Below are positions 4,756-47,182 of a DNA stretch of 64,000 bases, piece by piece. Source of the DNA: an uncultured Gammaproteobacteria bacterium (lineage in GTDB: Bacteria > Patescibacteriota > Patescibacteriia > UBA11705 > DATKZF01); the NCBI GenBank assembly GCA_964411255.1, contig CAYPKD010000002.1:162141-226140 (forward strand), read 5' to 3'. The position numbers and the translations under genes are program-made. Position 1 is the stretch's first letter. Every line of letters begins with the position of its first letter. The notes below the pieces were generated by a model. It ran no database searches, was not told where the DNA came from, and was given only the letters and a program-made list of their open reading frames with translations.

Positions 4756-5463
4756 TTATAATTTTCTCATTTTATAGCAAACAATATTTTCCTTTTGCAA
4801 GTATTGCCCAACAAGTAAGGGATAAAATTTTTCTCCATTAATTTGCGTTAATTTAAAGTCTTGAAGCTGATTAATATCTCCTGAAAATTCATCTTTCATT
4901 AATTTCCCGAACACATAATAAACATTTTTCAATTTTTCAGTTTTTTTGTCTTTATGTTTTTTTGTTTGTTTAATAAATTTTTCAATTATTTTTACGCCTT
5001 TTTCAATCGCTTCATTTCTGTCTCTATCTTTCATTCCAAATTCTAATTCAATGCAGGTTTCTAATACCTCACCCAAAGGGCCTTTGGGATCTGGCCAGAG
5101 CAAAATTGTATCTAAATCAACATATTGGAGCGGAAATTTTTTTGAAAGTTTTTCTCTTGGCACAATAATAAAATCATCTTTTCCAAGTGACGCTTCATGC
5201 AGGTCAATTACATATTCATACTTTTTAGCAATTTTTAGATTTTGTGCTGCTTTTTTTACTTCATAAATATCTGAATCAATTTTTCCTGGATAGATTCGGT
5301 TTAAATTAATATCAATGTATTCTTTTTTTTGTTCAAGCGCTTTTGGATTGGCAATTAATGTATCAAAAAATTTATCTAATCCTTTAGATTTTAATTTTTC
5401 TAAAATTTCAATTCCCAGCGGCTCATTTCCATGAGTAGCTGCAATGATTAATATTTTTTTCAT
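4756..5463 (-). CDS. succinylglutamate desuccinylase/aspartoacylase family (AstE/AspA-like zinc deacylase)
   Basis: N-terminal IIAATHGNEPLG motif (G-x-HGNE). Confidence 0.6.
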   Translation of the reverse strand: MKKILIIAATHGNEPLGIEILEKLKSKGLDKFFDTLIANPKALEQKKEYIDINLNRIYPGKIDSDIYEVKKAAQNLKIAKKYEYVIDLHEASLGKDDFIIVPREKLSKKFPLQYVDLDTILLWPDPKGPLGEVLETCIELEFGMKDRDRNEAIEKGVKIIEKFIKQTKKHKDKKTEKLKNVYYVFGKLMKDEFSGDINQLQDFKLTQINGEKFYPLLVGQYLQKENIVCYKMRKL

Positions 5464-5520
5464 ATATAAATGTGTAAATTTTTCAAAAAAGGGCAGACAT
5501 TGCTGCCCTTTATGGAAAGA

Positions 5521-6435
5521 TTAAATGCCCAGATGTACCTTGATCATATCCAAGGTTAGATGAAGACCGCTTTTTCGTCCAATATCCCTGATCTCCAGAA
5601 CCAATTTGCCGTTTCGTACTCGAAATCTGGTATACCACCAGACTGAACGCAAGAACATTTCTATGTCTTTAACATCAGTTTGAGCAAATGGTTTTGCAGG
5701 ACGACAGATTTGTAGCCCATTGCCATTTTTTTGCATTATAACCTTCATTTGCGACAATCTCGTAATATATTTCTCAAAGCTTACTGGAGCTGGAGCATAT
5801 CTGTCATGTTCATAATTTGCCAAAGAATTTTTGATATAATTTCTCCAAATTCGGAAATTAGCTTCGTGTGGCCAATTCATTTGAGTATATAGGTAATTCA
5901 AGTCTCTAATAAATCCCATCCCTTCTTCAATTGAACACAAATCAAAATTAAACTGTATGCTTGCAATATGTCCCAGTCCAAATAGAGCCGGCCCATCAAC
6001 TTCAACCCAGATCTCATCTCGTTTATCAGGAATCATCAGATTATCATCAAGATGCTCATCCCATGAGACAGGCAGAAGCCTTGCCTGGCACATATGAGCA
6101 GCTTCTTCTATCATTGCAATCAGTATTTGTATGGTTACAAAAAGTCTGGAATCTTCAATATGATATGTGGGCGTATTAAGCTCCAGATTATTGCAGCCGA
6201 GCTCATAGACGAGAATAAATCCGTTTTTGCTCAGCTGTGTTATGTATCCATTTTTTCTTTGATCAACAACCCAGTTAAAATTTCCTGCCAGAATAGTAAG
6301 CATTTTTTGAGAAGTGGATCTATCTATTGGCCTTTGATTTTTATCAACAAAAAGAGTTTCAATCTCAATACCGATTTGTCTGTCCTGGGGTGTACAACAT
6401 TTAGCATTTTCAAAGTGCTGCCGCAATCTTTCCAC
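5521..6435 (-). CDS. carboxylate-amine ligase, glutamate-cysteine ligase family 2 (YbdK-like)
   Basis: N-terminal IGIEIETLFVD resembles the GCS2 LGxExEfxxV motif. Size about 300 aa. Confidence 0.5.
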   Translation of the reverse strand: MERLRQHFENAKCCTPQDRQIGIEIETLFVDKNQRPIDRSTSQKMLTILAGNFNWVVDQRKNGYITQLSKNGFILVYELGCNNLELNTPTYHIEDSRLFVTIQILIAMIEEAAHMCQARLLPVSWDEHLDDNLMIPDKRDEIWVEVDGPALFGLGHIASIQFNFDLCSIEEGMGFIRDLNYLYTQMNWPHEANFRIWRNYIKNSLANYEHDRYAPAPVSFEKYITRLSQMKVIMQKNGNGLQICRPAKPFAQTDVKDIEMFLRSVWWYTRFRVRNGKLVLEIRDIGRKSGLHLTLDMIKVHLGI

Positions 6436-9860: not shown

Positions 9861-10502
9861 ATGAAAAAGACAAGAAAGCTTTTTTTGTGTTCATCGAAAA
9901 TTAAAATTCTACCAGGACAAATAGTAAAAGATGAGAATGGCTTTGCTATACCCATCGAAACTTCTAATTTTAAATCACTTAATGAAAACGATATGTATAG
10001 AGTGGTTGGTTATGACGGTGATTGTTCAGTAAAAGTTGTCTCAGTTGACGAAGAGGCCGATTGCTCGACACATAATCCGTGGTGTCATGAAGATACCAAT
10101 CCGCCAGTTCGCCAGCGTATAACTAAAGATCCGGATGAATTAAGGTTTATAAGAGATGAATTAAGAGAAAAACGTCAACCTCATGTTGAGACAAAAACAT
10201 ATTCCGCTCTTATTAAAGGCAATGTAAATGTAATCGAAGGCGATAGGGTCAACATAATTGACTTTGAAGGCATTAATGGAATTGTTATCGCTGTATTAGA
10301 TGCTCTGGGCGTTTATGAAGTGATAGAAGTTGTTCAACATATTAACAAGCCGCTAATTGCCAGGCTTGTAAAAATTCAAAAGTGGAATAAAGCGCAAAGA
10401 GGCGGTCAGTATCCTGATCAGCAAGATTTAAGGGTATCAGATACTTCTTGGGTTGATGATTTCTCAAATATCAAATTTGTCCTAGAAGAAAATGATGATT
10501 AA
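9861..10502 (+). CDS. tandem-paralog family protein 3 (diverged)
   Basis: Upstream TTGTATAAT -10 and RBS AAGGAGAGGG. Shares the ITKDPDE motif and the V-N-V-I-x-GD-x-V module with paralog 4. Confidence 0.6.
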   Translation: MKKTRKLFLCSSKIKILPGQIVKDENGFAIPIETSNFKSLNENDMYRVVGYDGDCSVKVVSVDEEADCSTHNPWCHEDTNPPVRQRITKDPDELRFIRDELREKRQPHVETKTYSALIKGNVNVIEGDRVNIIDFEGINGIVIAVLDALGVYEVIEVVQHINKPLIARLVKIQKWNKAQRGGQYPDQQDLRVSDTSWVDDFSNIKFVLEENDD

Positions 10503-27996: not shown

Positions 27997-29541
27997 ATGT
28001 CCACTAAGAAAAATTTACCATTAATACTTTTAATCCTTGACGGCTGGGGCATTGCTCCCAAAAATAAAGGCAATGCAATAGAATTGGCTAAAAAGCCAAA
28101 TTTTGATTTTTTATTAAAAAAATATTCACATACCAGCTTATTTGCTCATGGCAGGCATGTGGGATTACCAGAAAATCAGGTAGGAAATTCAGAAGCAGGG
28201 CATTTAAATATTGGCGCTGGGCGTGTAGTAAAGCAGGATTCTGTTATTATATCAAAAGCGATTAAGGATGGGACATTTTATAAAAATACTGCTATCTTAG
28301 AACTGATAAAGCATGTAAATAAAAATAAATCAGATTTGCATCTGATGGGCTTAATATCACTTCATAATAGCCCTCACATGAGTTTGGAGCATTTATATGC
28401 TTTAACAAAAATGGCATGTAAACAATGTAAAAATATATATTTGCATCTTTTTACTGACGGACGTGACTCACCGCAATTTGCTGCTGCAGATATTTTAAGA
28501 CAGGTTCAGAAAAAATTACCTGAAAAAGTAAAAATTGTTTCTTTGGTTGGAAGATTTTATGCTATGGATAGAAATAAAAGATGGCAGAGAACCCAAACAG
28601 CTTATGAGCTTTTAATCAGCGGCAAAGGAGAAGTGTTCGAAGATTTTGATAAAGCAGTTTTGCATTCATATAACAAAGAATTAACCGATGAATTTTTGGA
28701 GCCGAGCTTAATTGTACCAAAAGGGAAAAAGCCTGTTTTAATAAAGGACAATGACGGTATTGTGTTTTTTAATTTACGATCTGACCGGGCCAGGCAATTA
28801 ACAAAATGTTTTGTCCAAAAAGATTTTAATAAAATAAATCCAAAGTCATTTAAGAGAAAAAAGAAATTAAAAAATTTAGCTTTTGTCGCATTGACTGATT
28901 TTGGCCCTGATTTAAATAATATTTTAACCGCCTATCCGAGCGTAACAGAAAAAAATACGATGCCAATTCTTTTACAGAATTTAAGGCAGGTGTATATTTC
29001 AGAAACCGAGAAGTATGCCCATGTGACATACTTTATCAATGGCGGTTCTGACAAGCCGGTTAATGGAGAAGATAGAATAAATATAGCTTCTCCTAATGTA
29101 AGAAGCTATGATTTAAAGCCTGAAATGAGTGCTTATAAGATCACTGATAAAATACTGGATTTATTATCAAAGAAAAGCTATGATTATTATGTGGTAAATT
29201 TAGCTAACCCAGATATGGTCGGTCATACAGGCAATCTTGAAGCTGGGATAAAGGCGATTGAGGCTACTGATAAATGTATTGGAGCAATTTATAAAAAGTT
29301 TTTAGCAGCTAAAGGCACTTGTATTATCACAGCTGATCATGGTAATGCAGAAAAAATGCTTGATTTAAAGACTGGTGAAAAATTTACTGAACACACAGTA
29401 AATAAAGTACCGTTTATTTTTGTTAATAGTAAAAATGTTAAATTGCGGTCTAATGGGCGTTTATCTCATATAATGTCAACAGTGCTTGATGTGATAAATC
29501 AAAAAAATCATAAAATTAGATCAAAGTCATTAATAAACTAG
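27997..29541 (+). CDS. gpmI: 2,3-bisphosphoglycerate-independent phosphoglycerate mutase (copy 1)
   Basis: LILDGWGIA and GNSEAGHLNIGAGR. 514 aa. Confidence 0.8.
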   Translation: MSTKKNLPLILLILDGWGIAPKNKGNAIELAKKPNFDFLLKKYSHTSLFAHGRHVGLPENQVGNSEAGHLNIGAGRVVKQDSVIISKAIKDGTFYKNTAILELIKHVNKNKSDLHLMGLISLHNSPHMSLEHLYALTKMACKQCKNIYLHLFTDGRDSPQFAAADILRQVQKKLPEKVKIVSLVGRFYAMDRNKRWQRTQTAYELLISGKGEVFEDFDKAVLHSYNKELTDEFLEPSLIVPKGKKPVLIKDNDGIVFFNLRSDRARQLTKCFVQKDFNKINPKSFKRKKKLKNLAFVALTDFGPDLNNILTAYPSVTEKNTMPILLQNLRQVYISETEKYAHVTYFINGGSDKPVNGEDRINIASPNVRSYDLKPEMSAYKITDKILDLLSKKSYDYYVVNLANPDMVGHTGNLEAGIKAIEATDKCIGAIYKKFLAAKGTCIITADHGNAEKMLDLKTGEKFTEHTVNKVPFIFVNSKNVKLRSNGRLSHIMSTVLDVINQKNHKIRSKSLIN

Positions 29542-29543
29542 TT

Positions 29544-31130
29544 ATGGCTCAACAAGTACCAAAACCTTTAACCCTTATTGTTTTAGACGGCTGGGGAGTG
29601 GCTCCTCCATCTGATGGCAATGCCATTTCATTGGCTAACACTCCAAATATTGACCGGTTTATCGCTAATTATCCGGCAATGACAATTTTAACTTCAGGTG
29701 AATCTGTTGGATTATCTGAAAATGAACCGGGTAATTCAGAGGTTGGACATCTAACAATGGGTATAGGCAGGGTTTTCTATCAAAATTTGCCCAGAGTGAA
29801 CCGTGCAATAAAGAACGGAGATTTTTTTAATAATCAGGCTTTTTTTAAAGCGGTAAATCATGTAAAAGTGAACAAATCTAAACTGCATTTGATAGGGATT
29901 TTAAGCGATGGAAATATTCAAGGGTCAATAGATCATTTATACGCCTTGCTTGAATTGGCCAGACAACAAAAGGTAAGCGAGGTATACATTCATGTTATTT
30001 TGGACGGACTTGACTCTTTAGAAAGTGGTGGAAAAGATTTTATAAATGATTTGGAAAAAAAGATTCATGAAACAGGAGTTGGTGAAATCGCATCAATATC
30101 AGGCAGATTTTTTGCATTAGATAGAGACGGTCATTGGGACAGAACCCAAAAAGCTTTTTATGCAATTGTACACGGACAGGCAGATGAATTTTATGATAAT
30201 CCGGCTGAAGCGATTGAATCTTCTTATAAAAAACAGATTTTTGATCAGGGGTTTCGGCCAGTTGTTATTACCAAAGGCGGTAAGCCAAAAACTACAGTTA
30301 CTGAAAAAGACGCTATAATTTTTTATAATATAAAAGGCGACCGTGCCAGTCAGCTTACAAAATCCTTTGTGCTGGATGAATTTTTAAAATTTGAAAGAGG
30401 ACCTAAAATTGCAAATTTGGTTTTTGTCACTATGACTCAATATGAAAAAGATTTACCAGTGGATGTTGCTTTCCCAAAGCAAATTGTTAAGACTTCATTA
30501 ACAAAAGCAATTAGCGATAACGGCCTTAAGCAGCTTTACATCGCTGAAACTGAAAAATATGCCCATGTTACTTTTTTCTTAAGTGGTAATACTGAGGAGC
30601 CGTTTATTGGCGAGGATAGAGTGGTAATACCGTCTCCTCAGATTGATTCTTATGTGCAAAAGCCAGAAATGAGCGCATTGGAAATTAGTAAACGGCTTGA
30701 AAAGGAAATTCTAAGGGAAGTATATGATTTTATTGTGTGCAATTTAGCCAATGCTGACATGCTTGGCCATACAGGGGATATTGAAGCGACGAAAAAGGCT
30801 ATTGAAACAGTGGATAAAGTAATTGGCACTATTGTGAATTTGGTTTTATCAAAGGATGGTGCGGTAGTATTGGTCGGTGACCATGGTAATGCTGAGGAAA
30901 TGAGAGATTTACAAACAGGAGAAATAAATAAAGAGCATACAAAAAATCCAGTTCCCTTTATAATTATTGGCAAAGAGTGGGAAGGAAAAAACATAGGAGT
31001 ATCTGAAAGCATTGGAAATGACTTAAGCTTGATAAAACCGGTTGGAATTTTAGCAGATGTAGCGCCAACAATATTGAAAATTTTAAATTTACCCGTTCCA
31101 GAGGAAATGACAGGTAAATCATTGATTTAA
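29544..31130 (+). CDS. 2,3-bisphosphoglycerate-independent phosphoglycerate mutase paralog (copy 2)
   Basis: LIVLDGWGVAP and GNSEVGHLTMGIGR. 528 aa. A tandem paralog of the preceding gene. Confidence 0.75.
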   Translation: MAQQVPKPLTLIVLDGWGVAPPSDGNAISLANTPNIDRFIANYPAMTILTSGESVGLSENEPGNSEVGHLTMGIGRVFYQNLPRVNRAIKNGDFFNNQAFFKAVNHVKVNKSKLHLIGILSDGNIQGSIDHLYALLELARQQKVSEVYIHVILDGLDSLESGGKDFINDLEKKIHETGVGEIASISGRFFALDRDGHWDRTQKAFYAIVHGQADEFYDNPAEAIESSYKKQIFDQGFRPVVITKGGKPKTTVTEKDAIIFYNIKGDRASQLTKSFVLDEFLKFERGPKIANLVFVTMTQYEKDLPVDVAFPKQIVKTSLTKAISDNGLKQLYIAETEKYAHVTFFLSGNTEEPFIGEDRVVIPSPQIDSYVQKPEMSALEISKRLEKEILREVYDFIVCNLANADMLGHTGDIEATKKAIETVDKVIGTIVNLVLSKDGAVVLVGDHGNAEEMRDLQTGEINKEHTKNPVPFIIIGKEWEGKNIGVSESIGNDLSLIKPVGILADVAPTILKILNLPVPEEMTGKSLI

Positions 31131-33396: not shown

Positions 33397-33834
33397 TTAT
33401 GTGGATTTTACTGAAAACTGTGGAAGACTAGAGAGCTTTTGAATAATCCATTTACCAATACGGTATAGCACGATGCCAACTATGAACGGGGAGTGAATCA
33501 CAAATTTCCATGTATTTGCTAGAATCTTGATTGGCCAAAAGAGGATCAATAGTACTGAGTAAGTACCTCTATTTAATGATTCAACGGGGGGTGAGGGAAC
33601 ATCCTCATCATATTCGTGGCAAATATATTTTCCTTCTTTATGATTCATGTAATGGCCCGGGAAGAGAAAATATCCATACCAAACAGGTTTTAGTAATATT
33701 TCATAGCAGTCTTTTTCTACTTTTGAGCCATGCCATACTTTGATACTATATTTGAGAAGAAATCGGCCAATTTGATAATATACTGTTGCAGCACCAATAA
33801 TTACAAGTATGATTTCAATGAAAGATCTTTCCAC
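33397..33834 (-). CDS. tandem-paralog membrane protein C (diverged)
   Basis: Related to 33938..34360 and 34465..34923 (IGYL/IGRFL ... WH ... WP(I/M)K(I/V)L). Confidence 0.5.
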   Translation of the reverse strand: MERSFIEIILVIIGAATVYYQIGRFLLKYSIKVWHGSKVEKDCYEILLKPVWYGYFLFPGHYMNHKEGKYICHEYDEDVPSPPVESLNRGTYSVLLILFWPIKILANTWKFVIHSPFIVGIVLYRIGKWIIQKLSSLPQFSVKST

Positions 33835-33919
33835 TTTTGCCTCCTTGCTGGGGGTGGGGGAAGAAACATTTCAATATATTACTTAAAAAAATAATTTTTG
33901 TCAAGAAATAAAAAATCCC

Positions 33920-33945
33920 TGGTTTTGAACCAAGGGATTATGCAG
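33920..33945 (-). terminator. terminator module AATCCCTGGTTTTGAACCAAGGGATT (copy 1)
   Basis: Palindromic hairpin. The minus strand is followed by TTTTTATTTCTTGACAAAAATT. An identical module lies at 34441-34466. Confidence 0.6.
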
Positions 33946-34360
33946 AGTTTATTCTGAAGATTTTTCTTATCGGCAGAGTAAAAAGCTTTCCAATTTGAAT
34001 TATCAATAAAGCAACACCGTAAATGATAGCTATGGGAAGGCCAATACCTATCAGACCAGATGTATTAAACAATACCTTTATTGGCCACGAAAGCATCATC
34101 GCTCGTTTGTATTGTCTTTCATTCATTAGATCTATTGGCACACCAGGAGCAATAGCAATTGAGAATGATATTGGAAATATTAGATAAACATACCAATATT
34201 TTGTAATTTTGCGTTTATAATCAGAGTTGTTAATATTCTTATTGCTGATGACATTATGCCAGGTTTTCCAGCTGATATGCGCAAACAGGTAGCCTATATT
34301 GCAATAAATGAAAAGACTTATAAATATTACCAATACCCAAGTCATAGTTGATAGTTCCAT
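33938..34360 (-). CDS. tandem-paralog membrane protein B
   Basis: About 60% identical to 34465..34923 (CNIGYLFAHISWKTWHN). Confidence 0.55.
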   Translation of the reverse strand: MELSTMTWVLVIFISLFIYCNIGYLFAHISWKTWHNVISNKNINNSDYKRKITKYWYVYLIFPISFSIAIAPGVPIDLMNERQYKRAMMLSWPIKVLFNTSGLIGIGLPIAIIYGVALLIIQIGKLFTLPIRKIFRINSA

Positions 34361-34440
34361 TTATAACCCCCTAATTGTTGTTGTGAAAGGACTAATTATT
34401 ATACTTTACAGGTAATACGAATTTTTGTCAAGAAATAAAA

Positions 34441-34466
34441 AATCCCTGGTTTTGAACCAAGGGATT
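34441..34466 (-). terminator. terminator module AATCCCTGGTTTTGAACCAAGGGATT (copy 2)
   Basis: Identical to copy 1. Overlaps the stop of 34465..34923. Confidence 0.6.
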
Positions 34467-34923
34467 ATACTGAATTAATTTTGAATAATTTCTTTACAGG
34501 TAGAGTGAAAAGTTTTCCGATTTGGATTGCGAGTAACCCAATGACATAGCCAATAGCTATAGGAATTCCTAATAACCATATTATAGTCCCAATATTTTGA
34601 CAAATGATTATTGTTAATGAAAGAATATTATATATTATTTTCATTGGCCACAAGAACATCATCATTCGCTTGTATTGTTTTTCTTTCATTCCATCTATTG
34701 GCACTTCTTCACCACCGCATTCATAGAATGACATAGGGAATATCAGATAAGCATACCAATATTTCGTGATTTTGCGCTTATTATTAAAGTAGTTAATCTT
34801 CTTGTTGAGGATGATATTGTGCCAGGTTTTCCAGCTAATATGAGCGAGTAGATAGCCAATGTTGCAATAAACAAATACGATGCATATAATTATTAATGTC
34901 CAAGCACTTGCAGATATTTCCAT
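34465..34923 (-). CDS. tandem-paralog membrane protein A
   Basis: CNIGYLLAHISWKTWHN. 3-4 TM segments. Confidence 0.55.
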   Translation of the reverse strand: MEISASAWTLIIICIVFVYCNIGYLLAHISWKTWHNIILNKKINYFNNKRKITKYWYAYLIFPMSFYECGGEEVPIDGMKEKQYKRMMMFLWPMKIIYNILSLTIIICQNIGTIIWLLGIPIAIGYVIGLLAIQIGKLFTLPVKKLFKINSV

Positions 34924-37216: not shown

Positions 37217-37522
37217 TTAATGAATTTTATCTGGCCAAAGATGATGGCCATTGACTACAATTTGACCTTCTTCCAGATTTAATTGCAGATAACCCCATTT
37301 TGGATGATTCCAGACTAATTTTCTTATCTTAATATTTTTACCGGTTTTTACTTCTTCATAATGTGAGCAAAAGAAAAATCCTGAGTCGCGTGATGCTAAA
37401 CTAAATAAGAATGTTAAAAAGTTTATTTTCATCCCGCAGTTTTCTTCCTTCTTGCATCCTTTACAAAGTATTTGTGCAAATTCTTCCTGCTCTTTTGTTC
37501 TTTTTCCCATTTTTTCCTCCAT
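37217..37522 (-). CDS. hypothetical Cys-rich small protein
   Basis: CKGCKKEENCG cluster. Driven by a consensus divergent promoter. Confidence 0.4.
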   Translation of the reverse strand: MEEKMGKRTKEQEEFAQILCKGCKKEENCGMKINFLTFLFSLASRDSGFFFCSHYEEVKTGKNIKIRKLVWNHPKWGYLQLNLEEGQIVVNGHHLWPDKIH

Positions 37523-37529
37523 TGATTCA

Positions 37530-37615
37530 ATTTATTATAATCTTTAATAAAAATTTTGTCAATTAATATAAATATGACAAGTTGACAAATTAATATATAA
37601 CTGATAAAATATAAT
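37530..37615. promoter_or_regulatory. divergent consensus promoters (both TTGACA-17-TATAAT-like) with TTGTCA/TGACAA inverted repeats
   Basis: Plus strand: TTGACA-aattaatatataactga-TAAAAT before the ATG at 37622. Minus strand: TTGACA-aaatttttattaaagat-TATAAT before the start at 37522. Confidence 0.5.
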
Positions 37616-37621
37616 GTTCAA

Positions 37622-39808
37622 ATGTACCTTGACACCAAGGAGGGTCAGATGACAAAAGACACCCAAAAAGTAGAAGAAATTATGCCTGGCTGCAAAGTTA
37701 TTCATACTTCAGCAGGCGAAATTATGGTGGGCTGTCCATCTGAAATTTTAAAGGTTTTTGCCAGACAAAACAGGCAAGTGCCTCAAGCAATTGTATTGCC
37801 AACTCATTTTTTTAGTTATGGAATTGTTCAGGCAGCACTTGAATTTGTGCTGTATAATTTTCTGTTTATTCAGGGAAGATTTTTCAAAGGTGAGAAGCTG
37901 ACTGTTTTTGGAACTGAAAAGCAAATTAATAGAATGACTGGACTTTTGCATCTGACTTTGAATGGGCCAAGTCGGTCAACGATGGAGAACTGGGGAATCC
38001 CTAAAGATCAAATTGATTTAGTAGAAAAGTTTTCAGATCATTTTCGTCTTAAGGATAAAAGCGGAAAGCCCTTGGCAATTTGCGAATTGATTAATTTTAG
38101 GAAGTTTAAATATGGTCATCCAGAGCTTCGGTTTGAACGGATTAATATTTCTATCAAAGATCAAAATGTTTTTAAGTTTGAGGATCAGTATACGGAAACT
38201 TTTGTTGATATAAATATTAAGGAAGCTCAAAGGCCGCAGATTCCTATCCCTGTACCACGCGAATTGCCTCCGCGAGCAGTGCTTGGAGCAACAGCTTTGA
38301 GTAAATGCACAACAGGTTTTGACCATACAGGATATACTTCTGGAGTTATTCTTTGGATCAATGGTATGGGTGTTTCTGTGGATGGCGTAGCCTGGATGAA
38401 AGAGCATTTGAGAAGCTTTGGCATAAATACAACTGAAATAAAAGCGCATATTGTCACTCATATACATGATGACCATAGCAATATTTTTGATTTAATTGTT
38501 AACGGAAAAGTTTTTAACCTGATTTCAGATAAATTGGGTTATCATTGTTTGGTTTCAAAAGCAGCTCTTCTCCTGGATATGCCCGAAGAGGAAATTAAGA
38601 AAATGATCCAGTTAATTGAGGTTATACCTGGCCAGCCGCTTCATTGGCATGGCGCAACTTTTGAATTTTGGCCAGTTGCTCATCCGATTCCAACAATGGG
38701 ATTTAGGGTAACGGTAGCTGGAAAATCAATCGTTTATTCAGCTGATACGATTTGGGGATCAAAGCTGAATAAATTATTCGATTCAGGCGTGATACCAAAG
38801 GATGTTTGTGAAAGAATTCAGGATGTGCCAATGCTGGGTTCAGAGCTGACATTCCATGACGCTGGCGGCGGAATGATTCACCCTGATTTGAAAGAATTGG
38901 CAGACCTGCCAGAACAGATTAGGCGCCACATCGTTCCAACACATATGGAACAAGTGCCTGACGAGCTGAGAGATAAGTTTGATCCGATCGAACCTGGTCA
39001 AAGCTGGGAATTGATCGGTCAAAGGACTTGGGATGTTAGTGATTTCATGAGAGTTTCACATGCGCCAATTCTTTCCAGTATTAGCGAAGAATGGATGCAT
39101 GTTGTGATTTCTCAGGGAAGAACCAAAGAGTATCCTGCCAACTATACTTTGCTTCAGGAAGGCAAGTTCGGTAAAAGCTTTTACCTTTTAATCGGCGGAA
39201 CTGTCAAAGTGTTATATAATAACGAGCGTGTGGCAACTCTCTCCACTGGAGATTTCTTTGGCGAAATTTCTTTAATGTACGATATTCCATGTACAGCTTC
39301 GATTGTGACAAAAAGTCCGATCAAAGTGCTTGAGCTGCCACAGGATATTTTTATGGAAATGGTTTCCTGTACGGGCTTGATGAAAAAGCTGGAGAAAATT
39401 CATCAGATTCGTCCTGTCCTGATTCAGTTGGCAACAATCAAGGATCTGCCTGCTCCGGTTCAGAATAGGCTTGTTGAAGCGACAAATCTTACACAGGTTA
39501 AAGCTGGTGAGGTGATTATCAAGCAGGGAGATGCTGGAGATCGGTTTTACGGAATCGTTTCTGGCAAAGCAGATGTTTTTTCCCAGGCTGATCCAAAATC
39601 ACCAAAGCGGCACATTGCTACATTGTATAGAAATCAGTGCTTTGGAGAAATGGCGCTGATAGGTAATGGAGTAAGAACAGCAGATGTTGTCGCTCAAACC
39701 GACATGGAACTGTTTTCCTTAACCAAAGAAGATTTTGTCAGAATTATTGGGCAGACTCCAATGTTCTTTTACGCAATAGGTATTTTGGCTCAAAGTAGAG
39801 CCAGATAA
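37622..39808 (+). CDS. metallo-beta-lactamase-fold protein fused to two cyclic-nucleotide-binding (CAP_ED) domains
   Basis: MBL motif HIVTHIHDDH (HxHxDH). Two cNMP-binding signatures FGEISLMYDIPCTASIVT and FGEMALIGNGVRTADVVA. N-terminal ~250 aa of unknown function. Confidence 0.65.
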   Translation: MYLDTKEGQMTKDTQKVEEIMPGCKVIHTSAGEIMVGCPSEILKVFARQNRQVPQAIVLPTHFFSYGIVQAALEFVLYNFLFIQGRFFKGEKLTVFGTEKQINRMTGLLHLTLNGPSRSTMENWGIPKDQIDLVEKFSDHFRLKDKSGKPLAICELINFRKFKYGHPELRFERINISIKDQNVFKFEDQYTETFVDINIKEAQRPQIPIPVPRELPPRAVLGATALSKCTTGFDHTGYTSGVILWINGMGVSVDGVAWMKEHLRSFGINTTEIKAHIVTHIHDDHSNIFDLIVNGKVFNLISDKLGYHCLVSKAALLLDMPEEEIKKMIQLIEVIPGQPLHWHGATFEFWPVAHPIPTMGFRVTVAGKSIVYSADTIWGSKLNKLFDSGVIPKDVCERIQDVPMLGSELTFHDAGGGMIHPDLKELADLPEQIRRHIVPTHMEQVPDELRDKFDPIEPGQSWELIGQRTWDVSDFMRVSHAPILSSISEEWMHVVISQGRTKEYPANYTLLQEGKFGKSFYLLIGGTVKVLYNNERVATLSTGDFFGEISLMYDIPCTASIVTKSPIKVLELPQDIFMEMVSCTGLMKKLEKIHQIRPVLIQLATIKDLPAPVQNRLVEATNLTQVKAGEVIIKQGDAGDRFYGIVSGKADVFSQADPKSPKRHIATLYRNQCFGEMALIGNGVRTADVVAQTDMELFSLTKEDFVRIIGQTPMFFYAIGILAQSRAR

Positions 39809-39811
39809 TAA

Positions 39812-39840
39812 AACTCAACAAAATGTGTTGAGTTTTTTTA
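39812..39840 (+). terminator. rho-independent terminator
   Basis: AACTCAACA-aaatg-TGTTGAGTT plus TTTTTT. Confidence 0.65.
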
Positions 39841-39842
39841 AT

Positions 39843-40934
39843 CTATGGCTTAACAATCATAGTACAAAGATAGCCGTCATGGACTTTATCAGTGCCAGGT
39901 GTAACTTTTAATTGAATATCTAGAATTTGATGAACCAGATCCATTACTGCAATATCACTGGCAGCATATGGACAATAGTCATCAGGCTGTCTGAGGTCTC
40001 CCAGATGAAGAAAAGCTCTTGAAGCGCAGCCTCCTCGGCATTGTTCTCCAAATCTGCAATCTTTACATAGATCTGGATATCTGTCTCGAATTTGGCTAAA
40101 GAGGACAGAAGTGTAAATTTCATCAAGTGTTTTTTCTGCAATTGATCCGGCAGCCCATTTTTCACCTTTTAAATAAACACATGGAGTAACACTGAGGTCA
40201 GTTTGAATCCGGCATGAAAGTCTGCCGCAAGAACAGCCAGCAACCGGATTTTTTTCAGCGTTGCCAAGGATATTGGCAATTAAGGGATCAGAAATTGATT
40301 CAAAAGTAATACCTTGTTCTGCTAGTAGCTTGATAATTTGCCAAAAGCGATAAGGAGTAAGCTGAAGTTTTGATTTACCACGGCCAGTTTTTCTAAACCA
40401 GTTTGTTCGCCAGGAAGCCTGATGCTTGTCAGCTAATTCTAAAAATTCCTTAATATCATCATCTGAAGTCTGACTGGTCACACAAGTAACGATTGATGCT
40501 TCAATCCCAAGCTCCTTGCAAATCTTTAAGCTTCTTTCCACCCAGTCCCAAGCGCGAGGATGCTGACGAAAGTCATTGTGCCGTTCAGGGTCTGGAAAAT
40601 CAATTGAAATATCAATATCATGGAAAATTCTCTTAACCTCAGCTGGATCCATCATTATTGCTGTTGCCCCATTGGTCGTAACTGCCTGCTTGACGTTGGG
40701 ATAATTTCGAGCAATATATCTGGCCAGCTCTACTGCATTTGGATTAAAAATAAATTCACCCGTTCCATAATTAATATCAGTGATTGTCGGGCAGATTTTG
40801 TCGGCAATAGCGGCCAGCTCGGTAAATGTGTGCTCTTCAGCGCGTGATGAACTGGCGCCATAACAATGTTTGCAGTGCATATTGCAAACGCCAAATCCCC
40901 AGCCTATGCTTTTTAGCGGGACAGGATTGCTCAT
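39843..40934 (-). CDS. radical SAM protein with C-terminal SPASM-type Cys-rich domain
   Basis: CNMHCKHC (CxxxCxxC) near the N-terminus. C-terminal CSCGRLSC...C...CKDCRFGEQCRGGC. Confidence 0.75.
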   Translation of the reverse strand: MSNPVPLKSIGWGFGVCNMHCKHCYGASSSRAEEHTFTELAAIADKICPTITDINYGTGEFIFNPNAVELARYIARNYPNVKQAVTTNGATAIMMDPAEVKRIFHDIDISIDFPDPERHNDFRQHPRAWDWVERSLKICKELGIEASIVTCVTSQTSDDDIKEFLELADKHQASWRTNWFRKTGRGKSKLQLTPYRFWQIIKLLAEQGITFESISDPLIANILGNAEKNPVAGCSCGRLSCRIQTDLSVTPCVYLKGEKWAAGSIAEKTLDEIYTSVLFSQIRDRYPDLCKDCRFGEQCRGGCASRAFLHLGDLRQPDDYCPYAASDIAVMDLVHQILDIQLKVTPGTDKVHDGYLCTMIVKP

Positions 40935-41016
40935 TGTTTTCCTCCTCTGTGAATGAACAAGTCAATAGTGAAGATATTTTATAAAATGGCCTCTGCTATT
41001 GCTTTGTTCTGGATTA

Positions 41017-42012
41017 TTATTTATATTTTTTAATTTGAAATTTTCTGCATGGGCAGACAAATTTGTAAGCTTTACTTTTTATCAAGTCATTGAAATTATA
41101 ATTAACACAGCCGGAGTATTTATAAAAAAGTTCCTGAATATGATTTTTAAAATATCTGTTTGAAATCTTTCTGCGGTTTGGCCAAAATGTTTTTAATGGC
41201 AAATATTTTAAATTTCCCAAAGGCTTATTATAGGTGGCCATGATAGAGCATGGGAATGCATCGCCATTTGGAAAAATTTGAAGAAAACTGATATTTTTTG
41301 CCAAGCAATCAACATTACACTCAATATGACTTTCTATGATTGGAGCTTCAAGCGTTATTTTGATTTTATCGTTATATTTCCCCAAATTATTTCTACAGAT
41401 CTGCAACCACTTTTTTGGATCAGCAACATGTTCTGTTTTATTTGCGCCCCGGCCGACAGGACTGAAAAAGCAAAATCGTATTTCATGAACCCCGAGGTCA
41501 ATTGCCTGCTTTACTACGTATTCAATGTCATAAAGATTATAGTCAAAAATAACTGTATTGATTTTTGTAAACAATCCTATCTTAACGCTGTTTTTTATTG
41601 TTTTGATTATTCGATGATAAACAGCGATTGTTTCTGGCCTGGTTTGCTTGAATGATTTATAATTTGGCCCGTCTAAACTGACTGATATTCCTTTTAAACC
41701 AGCCTGTTTTAATTTCCACAATTTTTCTTCAGTTAGCAAGCTGCCATTGGTTACGAGTTTGGTTCGCAGGTTTAACTTGTTTGCATAACTGATGATTTTA
41801 TCAATATCTTTATGAAGCATAGGCTCACCGCCAGTTAAATCTACTTTTATGCCTCCTAGGCTTTTAAAATCCTTTAGTATTTTTTTTGCCAAAGAAAGAT
41901 CCATGTCCTCGAGATTTGACTTTCCTGAATCAAAACCACAATGAATGCAATTAAAATTGCATCTGTTTGTAACATTTAAGTCGATTTGGATTTGATTTTC
42001 CATATAGGTCAT
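41017..42012 (-). CDS. radical SAM protein with C-terminal auxiliary Cys cluster
   Basis: RCNFNCIHCG (CxxxCxxC). C-terminal HIECNVDC...C...CVNY...CPC. Confidence 0.75.
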   Translation of the reverse strand: MTYMENQIQIDLNVTNRCNFNCIHCGFDSGKSNLEDMDLSLAKKILKDFKSLGGIKVDLTGGEPMLHKDIDKIISYANKLNLRTKLVTNGSLLTEEKLWKLKQAGLKGISVSLDGPNYKSFKQTRPETIAVYHRIIKTIKNSVKIGLFTKINTVIFDYNLYDIEYVVKQAIDLGVHEIRFCFFSPVGRGANKTEHVADPKKWLQICRNNLGKYNDKIKITLEAPIIESHIECNVDCLAKNISFLQIFPNGDAFPCSIMATYNKPLGNLKYLPLKTFWPNRRKISNRYFKNHIQELFYKYSGCVNYNFNDLIKSKAYKFVCPCRKFQIKKYK

Positions 42013-42111
42013 ACTATTTTAAGCTTAAAATGTAGATTTTGTCAAGCTTTGTTTTTTGATAAAAATTAGGAAATCTATTATAATTAAATCATGTTAATTA
42101 AATAAGAATTT

Positions 42112-42690
42112 ATGTTAAACAAAACTTTTTGGAATAAAATTAAAAAGGAACACGCAGAGTATGCCAGTGGCCGCTCAAATATAATCCATCATTCAAACAT
42201 TGCTTTAAGTAGTGCAAAAAAAGCAATATTTGCTTTGCATCGGGATAATGTAAAAGAGGCGGCGGCAAAGCTCAATGAGAGTAAAAAAGAATTAACAGAT
42301 TTAGAAAAGAAATTTGGGAAAAATTCAAGGTTTAGGTGTGAAGGCTCATGGAAGGCTGCAGCTGAAGAATTTGTTGAGGCAGCGCTTTATTTTGAATATA
42401 GAAAAACCGGCAAAGTAGGGGAGATTAAAGGAGTAAGCCTGCAGTTTGATGGGTACATCGGCGGTCTGTCTGATTTTTCTGGAGAACTGGTTCGCTGGGC
42501 TGTGCTTTTAGTAAACAAAGGTGATTATTCGAAAATGTTTGAAATTCAAAAAACAATAAATGAAGTTATCCAGATTTTGCTAGACACAAATTTAACTGGA
42601 CCTTTGCGACAAAAATTTGATCATGCAAAAAGAAATCAGCAGCGGATTGAACAGATGATATATGATCTTAAAATCAGGAAACTTATTTAG
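42112..42690 (+). CDS. translin-family protein (bacterial homolog)
   Basis: C-terminal half GELVRWAVLLVNKGDYSKMFEIQKTINEVIQILLDTNLTG...IYDLKIRK aligns by eye with eukaryotic translin GELSRLAVNSVTAGDYSRPLHISTFINELDSGFRLLNL...VYDLSIRG. Confidence 0.5.
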   Translation: MLNKTFWNKIKKEHAEYASGRSNIIHHSNIALSSAKKAIFALHRDNVKEAAAKLNESKKELTDLEKKFGKNSRFRCEGSWKAAAEEFVEAALYFEYRKTGKVGEIKGVSLQFDGYIGGLSDFSGELVRWAVLLVNKGDYSKMFEIQKTINEVIQILLDTNLTGPLRQKFDHAKRNQQRIEQMIYDLKIRKLI

Positions 42691-43720: not shown

Positions 43721-44569
43721 TTATTTCATTAAGCGCTTACTGCCCAGAATATAATATTTTTTATTTATTTCAAAACCTAAATATTTCCGTTTTAATCGTT
43801 TGGCTACAACACAAGTGGTGCCAGAACCTAAGAATGGATCAAAAACTAAATCGTTTTCATTTGATGAAGCTAAAATAATTCGTTCAATTAATTTTTCAGG
43901 TTTTTGAGTCGGATGCTCAGTGTTTTCCGGCATTGACCAAAAAGGCACAGTTAAATCTGTCCAAATGTTTGACGGATGAGTCATGCGGAATTTCTGTCCA
44001 TCTTTTTCCACCCAATCTTTTGGCCTGCCAGAGGAATCTTTATAAGGAGCTATAACCTCCTTTTTTATTTTGACTTGATCTAAATTGAAAGTATAATCCT
44101 TGGATTTGGTGGCAAACCAGATGTCTTCCATATTATTTTTCCAATTTTTCTTTGAACCTCTGCCTTTTTCACGCTTCCAGGTAATTCTGTTTTGTGCTAC
44201 AAAATATTGTTCTAATAAATTTTGAATCATACCAGAATTTGGCCAATCAATGCAAATATAAATAGAGCCAGTCGGTTTTAATATTCTAAAACATTCCTTA
44301 ATCCAGGAATCATTCCAATTTTCAAATTCCCTTTTTGACAAATTTACAGTGCCATCGCCAAAGTTTTTTCGGTTATTATAAGGAGGATCAGTTAAAATTA
44401 GGTCAATTGAATCATCTGGAATGAGTTTTATTGATTTCAGACAGTCAGTTAGATAAATATTATTTTCAATCTCTGTGATATTTTTAATTTGTTTTGGGAA
44501 TTCTAAAAAAGTGAAATTTTTAATTTCCTCATCAGTAACGGTAATAGTTTTATTTCGATTTGATTTCAT
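43721..44569 (-). CDS. DNA methyltransferase, beta-class (DPPY; N6-adenine or N4-cytosine)
   Basis: Motif IV LILTDPPYN precedes motif I FDPFLGSGTT. No adjacent restriction endonuclease candidate. Confidence 0.75.
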   Translation of the reverse strand: MKSNRNKTITVTDEEIKNFTFLEFPKQIKNITEIENNIYLTDCLKSIKLIPDDSIDLILTDPPYNNRKNFGDGTVNLSKREFENWNDSWIKECFRILKPTGSIYICIDWPNSGMIQNLLEQYFVAQNRITWKREKGRGSKKNWKNNMEDIWFATKSKDYTFNLDQVKIKKEVIAPYKDSSGRPKDWVEKDGQKFRMTHPSNIWTDLTVPFWSMPENTEHPTQKPEKLIERIILASSNENDLVFDPFLGSGTTCVVAKRLKRKYLGFEINKKYYILGSKRLMK

Positions 44570-44704: not shown

Positions 44705-47182
44705 GTGCAATCCTCATCCAGAGTAATGGGAATTTTACTGATTATATTTAAAATTGCAAAACCAATAATAACTAAGTTGTGGAAAGTAATGCTAACTCTC
44801 GGGAAAACAGCCAAAGGAGTCGGCGCAACAAAAGCAGGACTTGGAGTGACTTCATTTGGAGTTTATTCGTTAATTTTCACCTGGGAATTTGCTGTTTGCA
44901 TTTTAGTTTTAATTGGCATTCATGAAATGGGCCATGTTTGGGCAATGAAGCGGTTTGGCATGCCAACCAAGGGATTTTACTTTATTCCATTTTTCGGTGG
45001 TGCTGCAGTGCCTGAAACTTCTTTTCCAACAGCCTACTCAGAAGGTTACATTGCTTTGATGGGTCCGATCTGGGGATTGTTTACCAGTTTTGGAACCTAT
45101 TTGATTTACATTGCAACTTCAAATCCTGTGTTTGAAGTGGCAGCCTGCTGGATGGCTTTTGTTAACTTGATCAATCTATTGCCGATTTATCCGTTTGACG
45201 GCGGCAGAGTATTGCATTCTTTTACCTATTCATATCCAATGACTCGTTCAGAAAAAATCATGATGGCCATATTTAGTTCAGCAGCAATTGCATTTTGTGT
45301 AGTAAATGGATATTGGTTGTTCGCTTTTTTTGGAGTGGTAGGATTTTTTGAGCTTGCTTCTGATTATAATAAATTTCATAGAATGAAAAAAAATCAGATT
45401 GAAATAGAAACTGGCGAAATTGAAGACATAATAAGGTATTTAAAAAGACTTTTAGGATTAAATGATTTTGCTGATATCAGCGAGATTCCTCAGGCAATTG
45501 ATAATATGAAAGAGTCTAAAGATTGGCAGGAATTTGAACAACTGAAAGGCCTAAGAGAGCAGTTTTCAACCTGGTATCAGGACTGGCAAGAAGTTTGGCA
45601 GGAAATGTTAAATGATATCGGGTGTCATGATAAGCTATATCAGAAGTTAACTGTGTGTTTGATTGATAAAGATCCAGTTAGCCTGATGAGAAAAATTATA
45701 GAGAAAGGTCAAAAGAGAATAAAAATCTTAGGAGATAGTTATGTGGTTAGTGCGACAGATATTTATGATATTGAACATAGTCATCAAGAAAAACTGTGTG
45801 ATATAGACGGTGATTTTTGGCAGAGCATAGCAGAGCTATGCGATCAGTTTAAGCGAATTTACAATCAGGCAGAACAAAATTTGAAAAGTCTTTATCCAAA
45901 GATGTCACAGTTTTTTAAAGCTGCTGAAGTAAACTCAAAGCAAAGGTTCGCTGGTTTTCCATATAAAGATAGTTGGTCTAATTTTGAAGTTATTATCGCT
46001 TATCTAAATTCTGATTCTGAGCGTATATTAATTCCTAAAGATACAAAAATACACGAACAAGACTTAGCCTGGTATCGACCAATAAGACAATACCATCTTG
46101 ATCAGATAAAGGAAATAAATGAAGTATATTTTACTTTTTTGATATTTGAGCCAGAAGAACTTGATAAAATTATCACTAGGTATAATGCTATTATAGCTAA
46201 TAATGAACAAGACAAGCCTGTTTTAAATATAATAGGTACAAAAATTAAGAAAATGATAGGAGATTCTGTTAAATTGCTTGGACTGAAAAAAAATGCAAAG
46301 ATAGGCGATATTTTCATCACAATTGACAATATGAAAAAGCAAGAAAAATGGAGAGAATTTGAAGAGATCAGGAAAATACGAAAGGATTTTTCATCCTGGT
46401 ATAAAAAGTGGAAAAAGTTTTGGAAACAAATGAAAAAGAATTTTGATTGCGGGATAAACAACGAATTTATTATTTGTATGCTGGAGGATGAGCCGGTTAA
46501 GCTGATTAAGCAAGTTTTGGATGATGGGAAAAGGGTAGTAAAAATATTAGATGCAGAATTTGGGATTGAAATTCATGGATATGGATTAGAAAGAGCAAAA
46601 GAAATGGAATGGGATAAGTATCATATCCCTGATAATTATTGGCAAAGGCTGGAAATTTTATGCAGCAAATTTAAAGAGATGTATGATCAGATGGAGTCTC
46701 AATTGAGCACTCTTTATCCAAAGATGAAAGATTTGTTCACCAAGCATGGAATAGAAAATAATATGAAGTTTAATGACTTCCCATCAAAAGATCCTTGGTA
46801 TAATTTTGAAGCGGTAATTTTGTACTTGGCTTCATCAAAATATCATCGTTTAATACCTCCGACGACAAGGATACATTTAGATGGTTGTGAAAGAAAGATA
46901 GAGCAACATAATATGCAACATGATGAATATAGTTTTGCACATCTAGATACAATAAACGAGACATTTTTCGCTTCATTATTTATAGCGCCCAGAGTACTTG
47001 ATAAATTAAAAGATAAATACGCTGTTATTGCAGATAATAGTGAAATCAGATTATCATTTAAGCAAAAAGCGATCGTGTTTGGAGGATATGTAATTTTATT
47101 AATTGTATTGTTCACTTTAATGTATGTGACCGGGGGTAGTGATGCTGCCCGAGGAGCTGTTTCGTTCTTTAAAGAATTTTAA
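44705..47182 (+). CDS. M50-family (site-2-protease-like) zinc metalloprotease fused to a tandemly duplicated ~270-aa domain and C-terminal TM
   Basis: HEMGHV (HExxH) and NLLPIYPFDGGRV (LDG motif). Two internal repeats (AIDNMKESKDWQEF.../TIDNMKKQEKWREF... through ...LYPKM...). The start may be the internal Met at 44726. Confidence 0.6.
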   Translation: MQSSSRVMGILLIIFKIAKPIITKLWKVMLTLGKTAKGVGATKAGLGVTSFGVYSLIFTWEFAVCILVLIGIHEMGHVWAMKRFGMPTKGFYFIPFFGGAAVPETSFPTAYSEGYIALMGPIWGLFTSFGTYLIYIATSNPVFEVAACWMAFVNLINLLPIYPFDGGRVLHSFTYSYPMTRSEKIMMAIFSSAAIAFCVVNGYWLFAFFGVVGFFELASDYNKFHRMKKNQIEIETGEIEDIIRYLKRLLGLNDFADISEIPQAIDNMKESKDWQEFEQLKGLREQFSTWYQDWQEVWQEMLNDIGCHDKLYQKLTVCLIDKDPVSLMRKIIEKGQKRIKILGDSYVVSATDIYDIEHSHQEKLCDIDGDFWQSIAELCDQFKRIYNQAEQNLKSLYPKMSQFFKAAEVNSKQRFAGFPYKDSWSNFEVIIAYLNSDSERILIPKDTKIHEQDLAWYRPIRQYHLDQIKEINEVYFTFLIFEPEELDKIITRYNAIIANNEQDKPVLNIIGTKIKKMIGDSVKLLGLKKNAKIGDIFITIDNMKKQEKWREFEEIRKIRKDFSSWYKKWKKFWKQMKKNFDCGINNEFIICMLEDEPVKLIKQVLDDGKRVVKILDAEFGIEIHGYGLERAKEMEWDKYHIPDNYWQRLEILCSKFKEMYDQMESQLSTLYPKMKDLFTKHGIENNMKFNDFPSKDPWYNFEAVILYLASSKYHRLIPPTTRIHLDGCERKIEQHNMQHDEYSFAHLDTINETFFASLFIAPRVLDKLKDKYAVIADNSEIRLSFKQKAIVFGGYVILLIVLFTLMYVTGGSDAARGAVSFFKEF

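Follow-up and report, generated by a model that had tools for sequence, protein, structure and literature searches.

The locus analysed here lies within a 64-kb stretch of DNA (64,000 nucleotides, hereafter the window) and carries two adjacent radical S-adenosylmethionine (SAM) genes, designated rSAM-A and rSAM-B, together with a gene for a metallo-beta-lactamase (MBL) protein with two domains for the binding of cyclic nucleoside monophosphates (cNMP), designated MBL-cNMP. The GC content of the window is low (0.34) and the sequence belongs to Patescibacteria, the candidate phyla radiation (CPR). Identical genes were found in groundwater and lake metagenome contigs, and relatives carry the annotation of Falkowbacteria or Patescibacteria. 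The four open reading frames (ORFs) named by the initial annotation were recovered at exactly its coordinates, as follows.

37217-37522, minus strand: orphan protein of 101 aa, without a Pfam or NCBIfam family
37622-39808, plus strand: MBL-cNMP protein of 728 aa, with Lactamase_B_2 and two cNMP_binding domains
39843-40934, minus strand: rSAM-B, 363 aa, with Radical_SAM and SPASM domains
41017-42012, minus strand: rSAM-A, 331 aa, the first gene of a two-gene operon, with Radical_SAM and a sub-threshold SPASM match

Rfam and tRNA scans of the region gave no match. The locus was interpreted as a conserved three-gene unit, in which a nucleotide-modifying module of two radical-SAM enzymes would be accompanied by a cNMP-gated phosphodiesterase, and not as a cluster for ribosomally synthesized and post-translationally modified peptides (RiPPs); we give this interpretation about an even chance of being correct.

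Both enzymes were identified as radical-SAM proteins by Pfam (PF04055, 90.3 bits for rSAM-A and 55.8 bits for rSAM-B with a cut-off of 29.5), with the CxxxCxxC motif at residues 18-25 of rSAM-A (41938-41961) and residues 17-24 of rSAM-B (40863-40886), and the Cys-rich auxiliary domains described at the outset are present in both. The description of the pair as SPASM-type is correct for rSAM-B (PF13186, 31.3 bits with a cut-off of 21.5; NCBIfam TIGR04085, 37.7 bits with a cut-off of 27) and incorrect for rSAM-A, which scored 18.8 bits with PF13186. A CX2CX5CX3C motif is located at residues 290-303 of rSAM-B (40026-40067), and C290, C293, C299, C303 and C321 are invariant. This motif was not found in rSAM-A, in which the invariant C-terminal Cys residues are four only (C236, C255, C302 and C320); together with the sub-threshold SPASM score, they indicate that the auxiliary domain of rSAM-A is likely to hold one cluster and to be twitch-like or a partial SPASM rather than a full SPASM. 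The AlphaFold2 model of rSAM-B (pLDDT 93.6) begins directly with the barrel. The C-terminal tail of rSAM-B past the last canonical SPASM Cys carries an invariant V-H-x-x-Y-L-C-T-x-I motif (residues 351-360; 39855-39884, minus strand), and Cys151 inside the barrel is also invariant; the two features are kept across CPR, DPANN archaea and gut Clostridia. The C-terminal motif was inspected as a possible glycyl-radical site and rejected, since the Gly is not conserved.

For the distribution of the pair, an rSAM-B alignment was scanned against one genome per species (185,579 species genomes), and 74 loci were obtained, of which about 15 are from Patescibacteria, several from DPANN archaea, many from gut Clostridia metagenome-assembled genomes (MAGs) and a few from others. 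The rSAM-B family is thus rare and patchy. Neighbours were counted by clustering all ORFs around the rSAM-B homologue in 70 loci. A second radical-SAM gene, either of the rSAM-A type or of a 518-aa B12-domain type (TIGR03960-like), was present within 4 kb of the rSAM-B homologue in 63 of the 70 loci, and a Tmk-like or NUDIX gene in at least 36 (38 with L010 and L014 included). The kinase is labelled Tmk-like because the kinases of related loci scored 48, 53, 65 and 82 bits with the dTMP kinase model TIGR00041, below its cut-off of 83.25 bits; these proteins resemble the viperin-associated kinases (VakA). In the closest CPR relatives (L010, L013-L018) the genes follow the order rSAM-A–Tmk-like–rSAM-B, the stop codon of one gene overlapping the start codon of the next, and Pacearchaeota-type DPANN have the order HD–rSAM-B–rSAM-A–Tmk-like, again with overlapping genes. 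In a Woesearchaeota locus the cluster is extended by genes for CTP synthase, thymidine phosphorylase, an amidohydrolase and a NUDIX protein. Four gene fusions were found among the related loci.

L025: Tmk-like kinase fused to an rSAM-A-like enzyme
L026: NUDIX fused to rSAM-B (separate genes in L027 and L030)
L020: rSAM-B fused to an inorganic-pyrophosphatase-like protein (stand-alone in L021)
L028: amidohydrolase fused to a B12-type radical-SAM enzyme

The domain content, conservation, gene linkage and fusions are directly established. Since the partners and the fused domains are nucleotide enzymes, we infer a small-molecule pathway acting on a phosphorylated nucleotide, with rSAM-A and rSAM-B as an undescribed two-enzyme radical module acting on the nucleotide.

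No equivalog for rSAM-A or rSAM-B was found in Pfam, NCBIfam or PADLOC. The top NCBIfam scores of the pair were obtained with NirJ2 (131.5 bits), AhbD (118 bits), GeoRSP (106 bits) and PqqE (91 bits), none of which reaches its cut-off (500 bits for the NirJ/AhbC/AhbD assignment). The MoaA models TIGR02666 and TIGR02668 gave 98 and 111 bits for rSAM-A with cut-offs of 284 and 325; the viperin model NF038283 gave 79 and 36.5 bits with a cut-off of 180; and the anaerobic sulfatase-maturating enzyme (anSME) model TIGR03942 gave 37.4 bits with a cut-off of 349. The PADLOC pVip matches reach only the core residues, about 10-162, with 87 bits for the rSAM-A core. Among solved structures, MoaA is the first relative of rSAM-A (87 bits), followed by PqqE and BlsE (76 bits for BlsE) and, lower, by viperin, and of these MoaA, BlsE and viperin act on nucleotides or nucleosides. 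The pair might in principle consist of known housekeeping or cofactor enzymes, such as MoaA of molybdopterin synthesis, NirJ/AhbC/AhbD of heme synthesis, QueE or PflA, and the rank of NirJ2, AhbD, MoaA and GeoRSP among the NCBIfam matches and of MoaA among the solved relatives of rSAM-A is in favour of such an assignment. However, the best scores of 98-131 bits are far from the cut-offs of 284-500 bits, MoaC and tetrapyrrole genes were not found within 10 kb on either side, and the family is too rare and patchy, with its few Patescibacteria loci, for a housekeeping function. The probability of this explanation is taken to be almost negligible, and the pair is kept outside the housekeeping enzymes as the initial annotation had it.

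The 728-aa protein was confirmed as a fusion of an MBL hydrolase with two cNMP-binding domains, with matches to Lactamase_B_2 and, over two stretches, to cNMP_binding (PF00027, 127.9 bits). Its true start is probably the ATG at 37649 rather than 37622, because an AAGGAGG ribosome-binding site precedes this codon, the start of the relative's protein lies there and residues 1-11 were modelled with pLDDT below 50. The domains are arranged as follows.

37649-38284, plus strand: N-terminal domain of about 220 aa, family-less
38285-39031, plus strand: MBL phosphodiesterase-type domain with HxHxDH, H354, D375 and H420/H441
about 39068-39391, plus strand: first cyclic-nucleotide-binding (CNB) domain, CNB-A, without the phosphate-binding Arg
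about 39434-39781, plus strand: second CNB domain, CNB-B, canonical, with R-T-A

The HxHxDH motif reads THIHDDH, and since the metal ligands (H280, H282, D284, H285, H354, D375 and H420/H441) are invariant in 32 homologues, the hydrolase domain should be active. With a profile of the MBL part of the homologues, structures of the BA1088/YhfI type and of Apyc1 were retrieved first (1zkp, 2e-10; 6kns; Apyc1 7u2r/7u2s, about 1e-6), ahead of RNase Z, CPSF and lactonases, and precomputed matches to the Apyc1 family PF23023 are spread over the MBL-cNMP family. The Apyc1/YhfI type is thus the nearest MBL subfamily by profile search, with the difference that Apyc1 is a stand-alone protein of about 250 aa and the window protein has sensor domains joined to its MBL domain. 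A tandem CNB module like that of PKA-R and PKG makes up the C-terminal half. The phosphate-binding Arg of CNB-A (FGE...P-C-T-A) has been lost family-wide and replaced by Cys or Thr, and CNB-B (FGE...R-T-A) keeps R-[TN]-A. The N-terminal domain is conserved and was modelled with pLDDT above 90, and no match to it was found in Pfam or the PDB, with the family profile included. The protein had been called an unusual second-messenger-gated hydrolase, and it is indeed unusual in bacteria; a precedent exists, however, in GbpA and GbpB of Dictyostelium, class IIb enzymes with an MBL catalytic domain and, after it, two cNMP-binding domains by which it is activated (PMC11988041). The window protein has the architecture of such class IIb cNMP-stimulated phosphodiesterases, an MBL domain with metal ligands and then two CNB domains, and is best read as a predicted cNMP-gated cNMP phosphodiesterase. 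The likeness is one of domain order and architecture alone, and the window protein differs in being bacterial (CPR), in its additional N-terminal domain of about 220 aa and in the loss of the phosphate-binding-cassette Arg of CNB-A.

In homologue searches the MBL-cNMP, rSAM-A and rSAM-B families share contigs. The MBL-cNMP gene was found convergent to and adjoining the 3' side of rSAM-B in about 10 of the 13 CPR-type loci with enough flank (linked in the window lineage, L084/L095, L086, L010, L011, L012, L013, L014, L016 and L096; not linked in L001, L004 and L102), and the linkage persists down to 41% identity of MBL-cNMP and 50% identity of rSAM-B while the outer flanks of the linked loci vary. 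A metagenome scan with the MBL-cNMP alignment returned mostly generic CNB proteins, with about nine true relatives. The GC content at third codon positions (GC3) of the three genes is 0.355, 0.321 and 0.316, compared with 0.269 ± 0.019 for 25 other genes of the window, and this common atypical value suggests a joint acquisition of the three genes. In other clades the phosphohydrolase of the module is of another kind (HD, NUDIX, PPase-like or His-phosphatase), and the MBL enzyme plausibly occupies the corresponding position here, controlled by cNMP.

Transcription of the locus was predicted from the following signals.

37534-37562, minus strand: promoter-like site of the 101-aa gene, TTGACA-17-TATAAT, 12/12, kept in L084
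37582-37610, plus strand: promoter-like site of the MBL-cNMP gene, TTGACA-17-TAAAAT with a TG extension, 11/12, kept in L084
39810-39836, no strand assigned: hairpin with an 11-pair stem and then a T-run, separating the convergent MBL-cNMP and rSAM-B genes
40935-41016, minus strand: intercistronic spacer of 82 nt with the GAGGAGG ribosome-binding site of rSAM-B and without a conserved ORF
42016-42045, minus strand: promoter-like site of the rSAM-A/rSAM-B operon, TTGACA-18-TAAAAT, 11/12

The divergent near-consensus pair at 37534-37562 and 37582-37610 is present, correctly placed and conserved in the 87% relative, with the correction that the second -10 box is TAAAAT and not TATAAT as first given. 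Over the whole 6-kb region, 21 promoter-like sites were counted against 17.5 ± 4.4 in shuffles, so there is no excess. A second divergent pair occupies 42016-42084, with the radical-SAM operon transcribed one way and a translin-family gene the other. The hairpin at 39810-39836 is suggested to be a bidirectional intrinsic terminator because A- and T-runs flank it on either side. The spacer between the radical-SAM genes measures about 50-240 nt in relatives or is replaced by the Tmk-like gene. The reported dyad, TTGTCA-N13-TGACAA, exists at 37556-37580; its left arm is the -35 box of the minus strand and its right arm is not kept in the 87% relative (TGCAAA). As an operator the dyad was rejected owing to this lack of conservation.

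For the substrate class, the order of the steps and the coupling of the phosphodiesterase, the following scheme is proposed. rSAM-A and rSAM-B would be expressed as a two-gene operon from their own promoter and terminator. A kinase would provide a phosphorylated, probably pyrimidine, nucleotide, which the two enzymes would alter in two steps by 5'-deoxyadenosyl radical chemistry, with the auxiliary Fe-S clusters serving in substrate binding or electron transfer, and a phosphohydrolase would then trim or recycle the product. The Apyc1/YhfI-like MBL catalytic domain would be under the control of the C-terminal tandem CNB module, of which CNB-B only has the Arg for the cyclic phosphate. MBL-cNMP would either take the place of the HD, NUDIX, PPase or His-phosphatase partner in this CPR lineage or couple the pathway to a cNMP signal.

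Several observations weigh against this scheme. The substrate class is assigned through guilt by association, and the window locus itself lacks the Tmk-like kinase; neither this kinase nor a NUDIX or Hsp70-like gene was found elsewhere in the 64-kb window. The MBL domain alone scored 14.4 bits with the Apyc1 family PF23023, whose cut-off is 50 bits. The closest fold to the rSAM-B model is the protein-modifying anSME (TM score 0.67-0.69), followed by the RiPP maturases SuiB and CteB, with SkfB and PqqE also among the best matches; rSAM-B has a full SPASM domain, and the L026-L030 relatives hold extra RiPP-maturase-like radical-SAM genes. As for the phosphodiesterase, its gene is convergent with rSAM-B and not co-transcribed with it; MBL-cNMP occurs without radical-SAM genes in L001, L004, L005 and L102; the radical-SAM pair is widespread without MBL-cNMP (DPANN, Clostridia, L017 and L018); and the linkage may be traceable to one ancestral arrangement. 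A distant MBL-cNMP clade (28-30%) is never linked to the pair.

The points on the phosphodiesterase, together with separate promoters and the terminator in between, favour inherited synteny, by which MBL-cNMP is a general cAMP/cGMP-signalling phosphodiesterase of CPR whose adjacency has no functional meaning. This explanation does not conflict with a nucleotide pathway for the pair itself and is a serious one, which we place somewhat short of an even chance. It is opposed by the adjacency kept at most CPR loci despite sequence divergence and differing outer flanks, by the raised GC3 common to the three genes and by the different phosphohydrolase that holds the same place in the modules of other clades. 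The functional coupling of the phosphodiesterase to the radical-SAM pair was judged to be roughly evenly balanced.

The points on the fold, the SPASM domain and the L026-L030 relatives bear on the proposal of the initial annotation that the locus is a RiPP or protein-maturase cluster, in which the pair would catalyse the cross-linking or oxidation of a ribosomal peptide or protein, namely the 101-aa protein, a remote peptide or the MBL-cNMP protein. It also agrees with this proposal that anSME-type enzymes work without a RiPP recognition element (RRE). The components of such a cluster were not found. In both enzymes CxxxCxxC begins at residue 17/18, too near the N-terminus for an RRE domain to precede it, and no N-terminal winged helix-turn-helix (the RRE fold) was found in the AlphaFold2 model of rSAM-B. 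PqqD (PF05402) gave no match in either enzyme or within 10 kb on either side, and no leader peptidase or exporter gene was found over the same distance. ORFs of at least 12 aa in or beside the operon were compared in 12 related loci, in most of which the operon genes overlap, and none was conserved. The antisense ORF in the spacer at 40935-41016, put forward as a precursor candidate, is a 26-aa ORF with no counterpart elsewhere. Every RiPP-maturase equivalog (AlbA, StsB, PqqE, MftC, DynA, WgkB and others) is far below its cut-off, with best scores of 50-94 bits and cut-offs of 265-850 bits, and the conserved and fused partners are nucleotide enzymes. The MBL-cNMP protein is also an unlikely substrate of a maturase, as its invariant residues are all kept at loci without radical-SAM genes; it was rejected in this role because MBL-cNMP and the radical-SAM genes are each widespread without the other. 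On this evidence the cluster proposal is not supported, and a peptide or protein substrate is regarded as highly unlikely.

The 101-aa ORF (37217-37522, minus strand) is a real gene, as judged from a dN/dS of 0.12 and the presence of an 82%-identical protein of 97 aa in L084. The length of the product is 97-101 aa, and translation probably begins four codons further in, at 37510. It was described as a Cys-rich small protein; the gene exists, and its product contains merely four Cys in 101 aa. No family was found for it in Pfam, NCBIfam or PADLOC, and it forms a single cluster among 1.84 billion representatives. In L086 (a 62% relative), a gene for arginine decarboxylase sits in its place. By its sequence record the protein is a lineage-specific orphan and a mere neighbour outside the conserved module. 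As a RiPP precursor it was rejected, being an orphan that is transcribed divergently from the MBL-cNMP gene and is absent from L086 and from other loci.

The nucleotide-enzyme neighbours and fusions would equally suit a modification of nucleic acid, in which the pair hypermodifies a base or sugar of tRNA, rRNA or DNA and the kinase and phosphohydrolases supply the precursor. In the gut-Clostridia clade the module is accompanied by a methyltransferase and a HelD-like helicase, and in the window a translin-family RNase-like gene and a DNA methyltransferase gene are close by. However, TRAM, THUMP, PUA and HhH domains were not found in either enzyme by Pfam, the similarity to MiaB, RlmN and TYW1 was not above noise in NCBIfam, and the translin and methyltransferase genes are not conserved as neighbours. 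A nucleic-acid substrate is considered decidedly unlikely, and the free nucleotide is preferred as the substrate of the pair.

Among described systems, the module is comparable with viperin, a radical-SAM enzyme linked or fused to a nucleoside monophosphate kinase of the thymidylate-kinase superfamily that feeds it nucleoside triphosphate (NTP) (bioRxiv 10.1101/2023.09.13.557418). The likeness to the viperin–CMPK2 system lies in the linkage or fusion to a kinase, the patchy accessory distribution and the matches of the rSAM-A core to the pVip models; the differences are the number of radical-SAM enzymes, two in the present module, their auxiliary Fe-S domains, found in both and missing from viperin, and the absence from the pair of the C-terminal NTP-binding extension of viperin. 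OxsB–OxsA of oxetanocin A synthesis, likened here by description alone, combines a radical-SAM enzyme acting on a (deoxy)nucleotide with an HD phosphohydrolase; likewise, an HD gene comes first in the DPANN versions of the module, and in many versions the radical-SAM partner has a B12 domain, whereas in the window the partner rSAM-A is MoaA-like without a B12 domain and the phosphohydrolase is MBL and not HD. MoaA and BlsE resemble rSAM-A in having one auxiliary cluster each and a nucleotide or nucleoside substrate, and rSAM-A differs from MoaA in its scores below the cut-offs and in the lack of a MoaC partner. Finally, anSME is the best structural match of rSAM-B and has the same length, a full SPASM with two auxiliary clusters and no RRE, whereas its identity to rSAM-B is 18-20%, the extra invariant tail VH..YLCT is found in rSAM-B, and no sulfatase gene was found within 10 kb on either side. 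No description of this gene combination was found in literature searches.

Some further observations were made in the related loci. In L091/L093 (DPANN), a divergent double helix-turn-helix AsnC/Lrp-type regulator (5213-6270) precedes the HD–rSAM-B–rSAM-A–Tmk-like operon. In L039-L083 (gut Clostridia MAGs), a distant rSAM-B relative (29-31%) is found around position 10001 in a larger conserved island. Its companions there are a radical-SAM enzyme with a B12 domain, as many as three proteins resembling P-loop nucleotide kinases, a histidine phosphatase, a methyltransferase, a HelD-like helicase and a protein in which an ExExK (CYTH-like) motif occurs. In L026-L030, some 4 kb upstream of the rSAM-B homologue, one or two radical-SAM/SPASM proteins of 520 aa are encoded, which are extended at the N-terminus and weakly similar to ryptide maturases; a third radical-SAM gene is also present there, as are genes for an MBL-like/HEAT protein of 530 aa and for a secreted protein that has a CX5R phosphatase loop, and the module is possibly combined there with peptide-directed enzymes.

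Within the window, the product of the gene divergent from rSAM-A (42112-42690) belongs to the translin family (PF01997, 80 bits), which is thus represented in a CPR bacterium; the gene has its own near-consensus promoter and its GC3 is raised too (0.311), and in L018 a translin homologue lies about 10 kb away from the radical-SAM pair. An orphan N6/N4 DNA methyltransferase gene (43721-44569) adjoins a gene for an 825-aa Peptidase_M50 (site-2-protease-like) protein with a very long non-protease region (44705-47182). On the other side of the locus, 27997-31130 holds a tandem pair of genes of the cofactor-independent phosphoglycerate-mutase type (Metalloenzyme and iPGM_N) with 40% mutual identity, and 33397-34923 (minus strand) holds three tandem paralogues for small hydrophobic proteins of 145, 140 and 152 aa, of which the 140- and 152-aa proteins share 57% identity, and their identity to the 145-aa one is 24-28%.

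Both CPR bacteria and DPANN archaea live as ultra-small symbionts and are thought to rely on scavenged nucleotides. A conserved and horizontally shared module that travels with nucleotide kinases and phosphohydrolases could represent new nucleotide chemistry, which might yield an analogue with antiviral or antimetabolite action or shorten a salvage or biosynthetic route. The gene set is now defined as rSAM-A, rSAM-B and a Tmk-like kinase with an HD, NUDIX, PPase or MBL partner, and the fusions point to its substrate class. The known kind to which it belongs is nucleotide modification by radical-SAM enzyme and kinase, of which the version with two radical-SAM enzymes in CPR, DPANN and gut Clostridia is undescribed. 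For annotation in general, tandem SPASM enzymes without a precursor or RRE should not be read as RiPP clusters. The MBL and tandem-CNB protein would be a bacterial counterpart of the Dictyostelium cGMP/cAMP-stimulated phosphodiesterases and offers a handle on cyclic-nucleotide signalling in CPR. The fullest version of the proposal, tentative and on present grounds rather unlikely, is that the module makes a new radical-modified, probably pyrimidine, nucleotide, either as an antiviral or antimetabolite analogue or as an alternative route to an essential nucleotide in CPR and DPANN symbionts, and that in the Falkowbacteria-like lineage a cNMP-gated Apyc1-like phosphodiesterase senses, degrades or gates its output. 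If true, radical nucleotide chemistry would be tied to cyclic-nucleotide signalling in these organisms.

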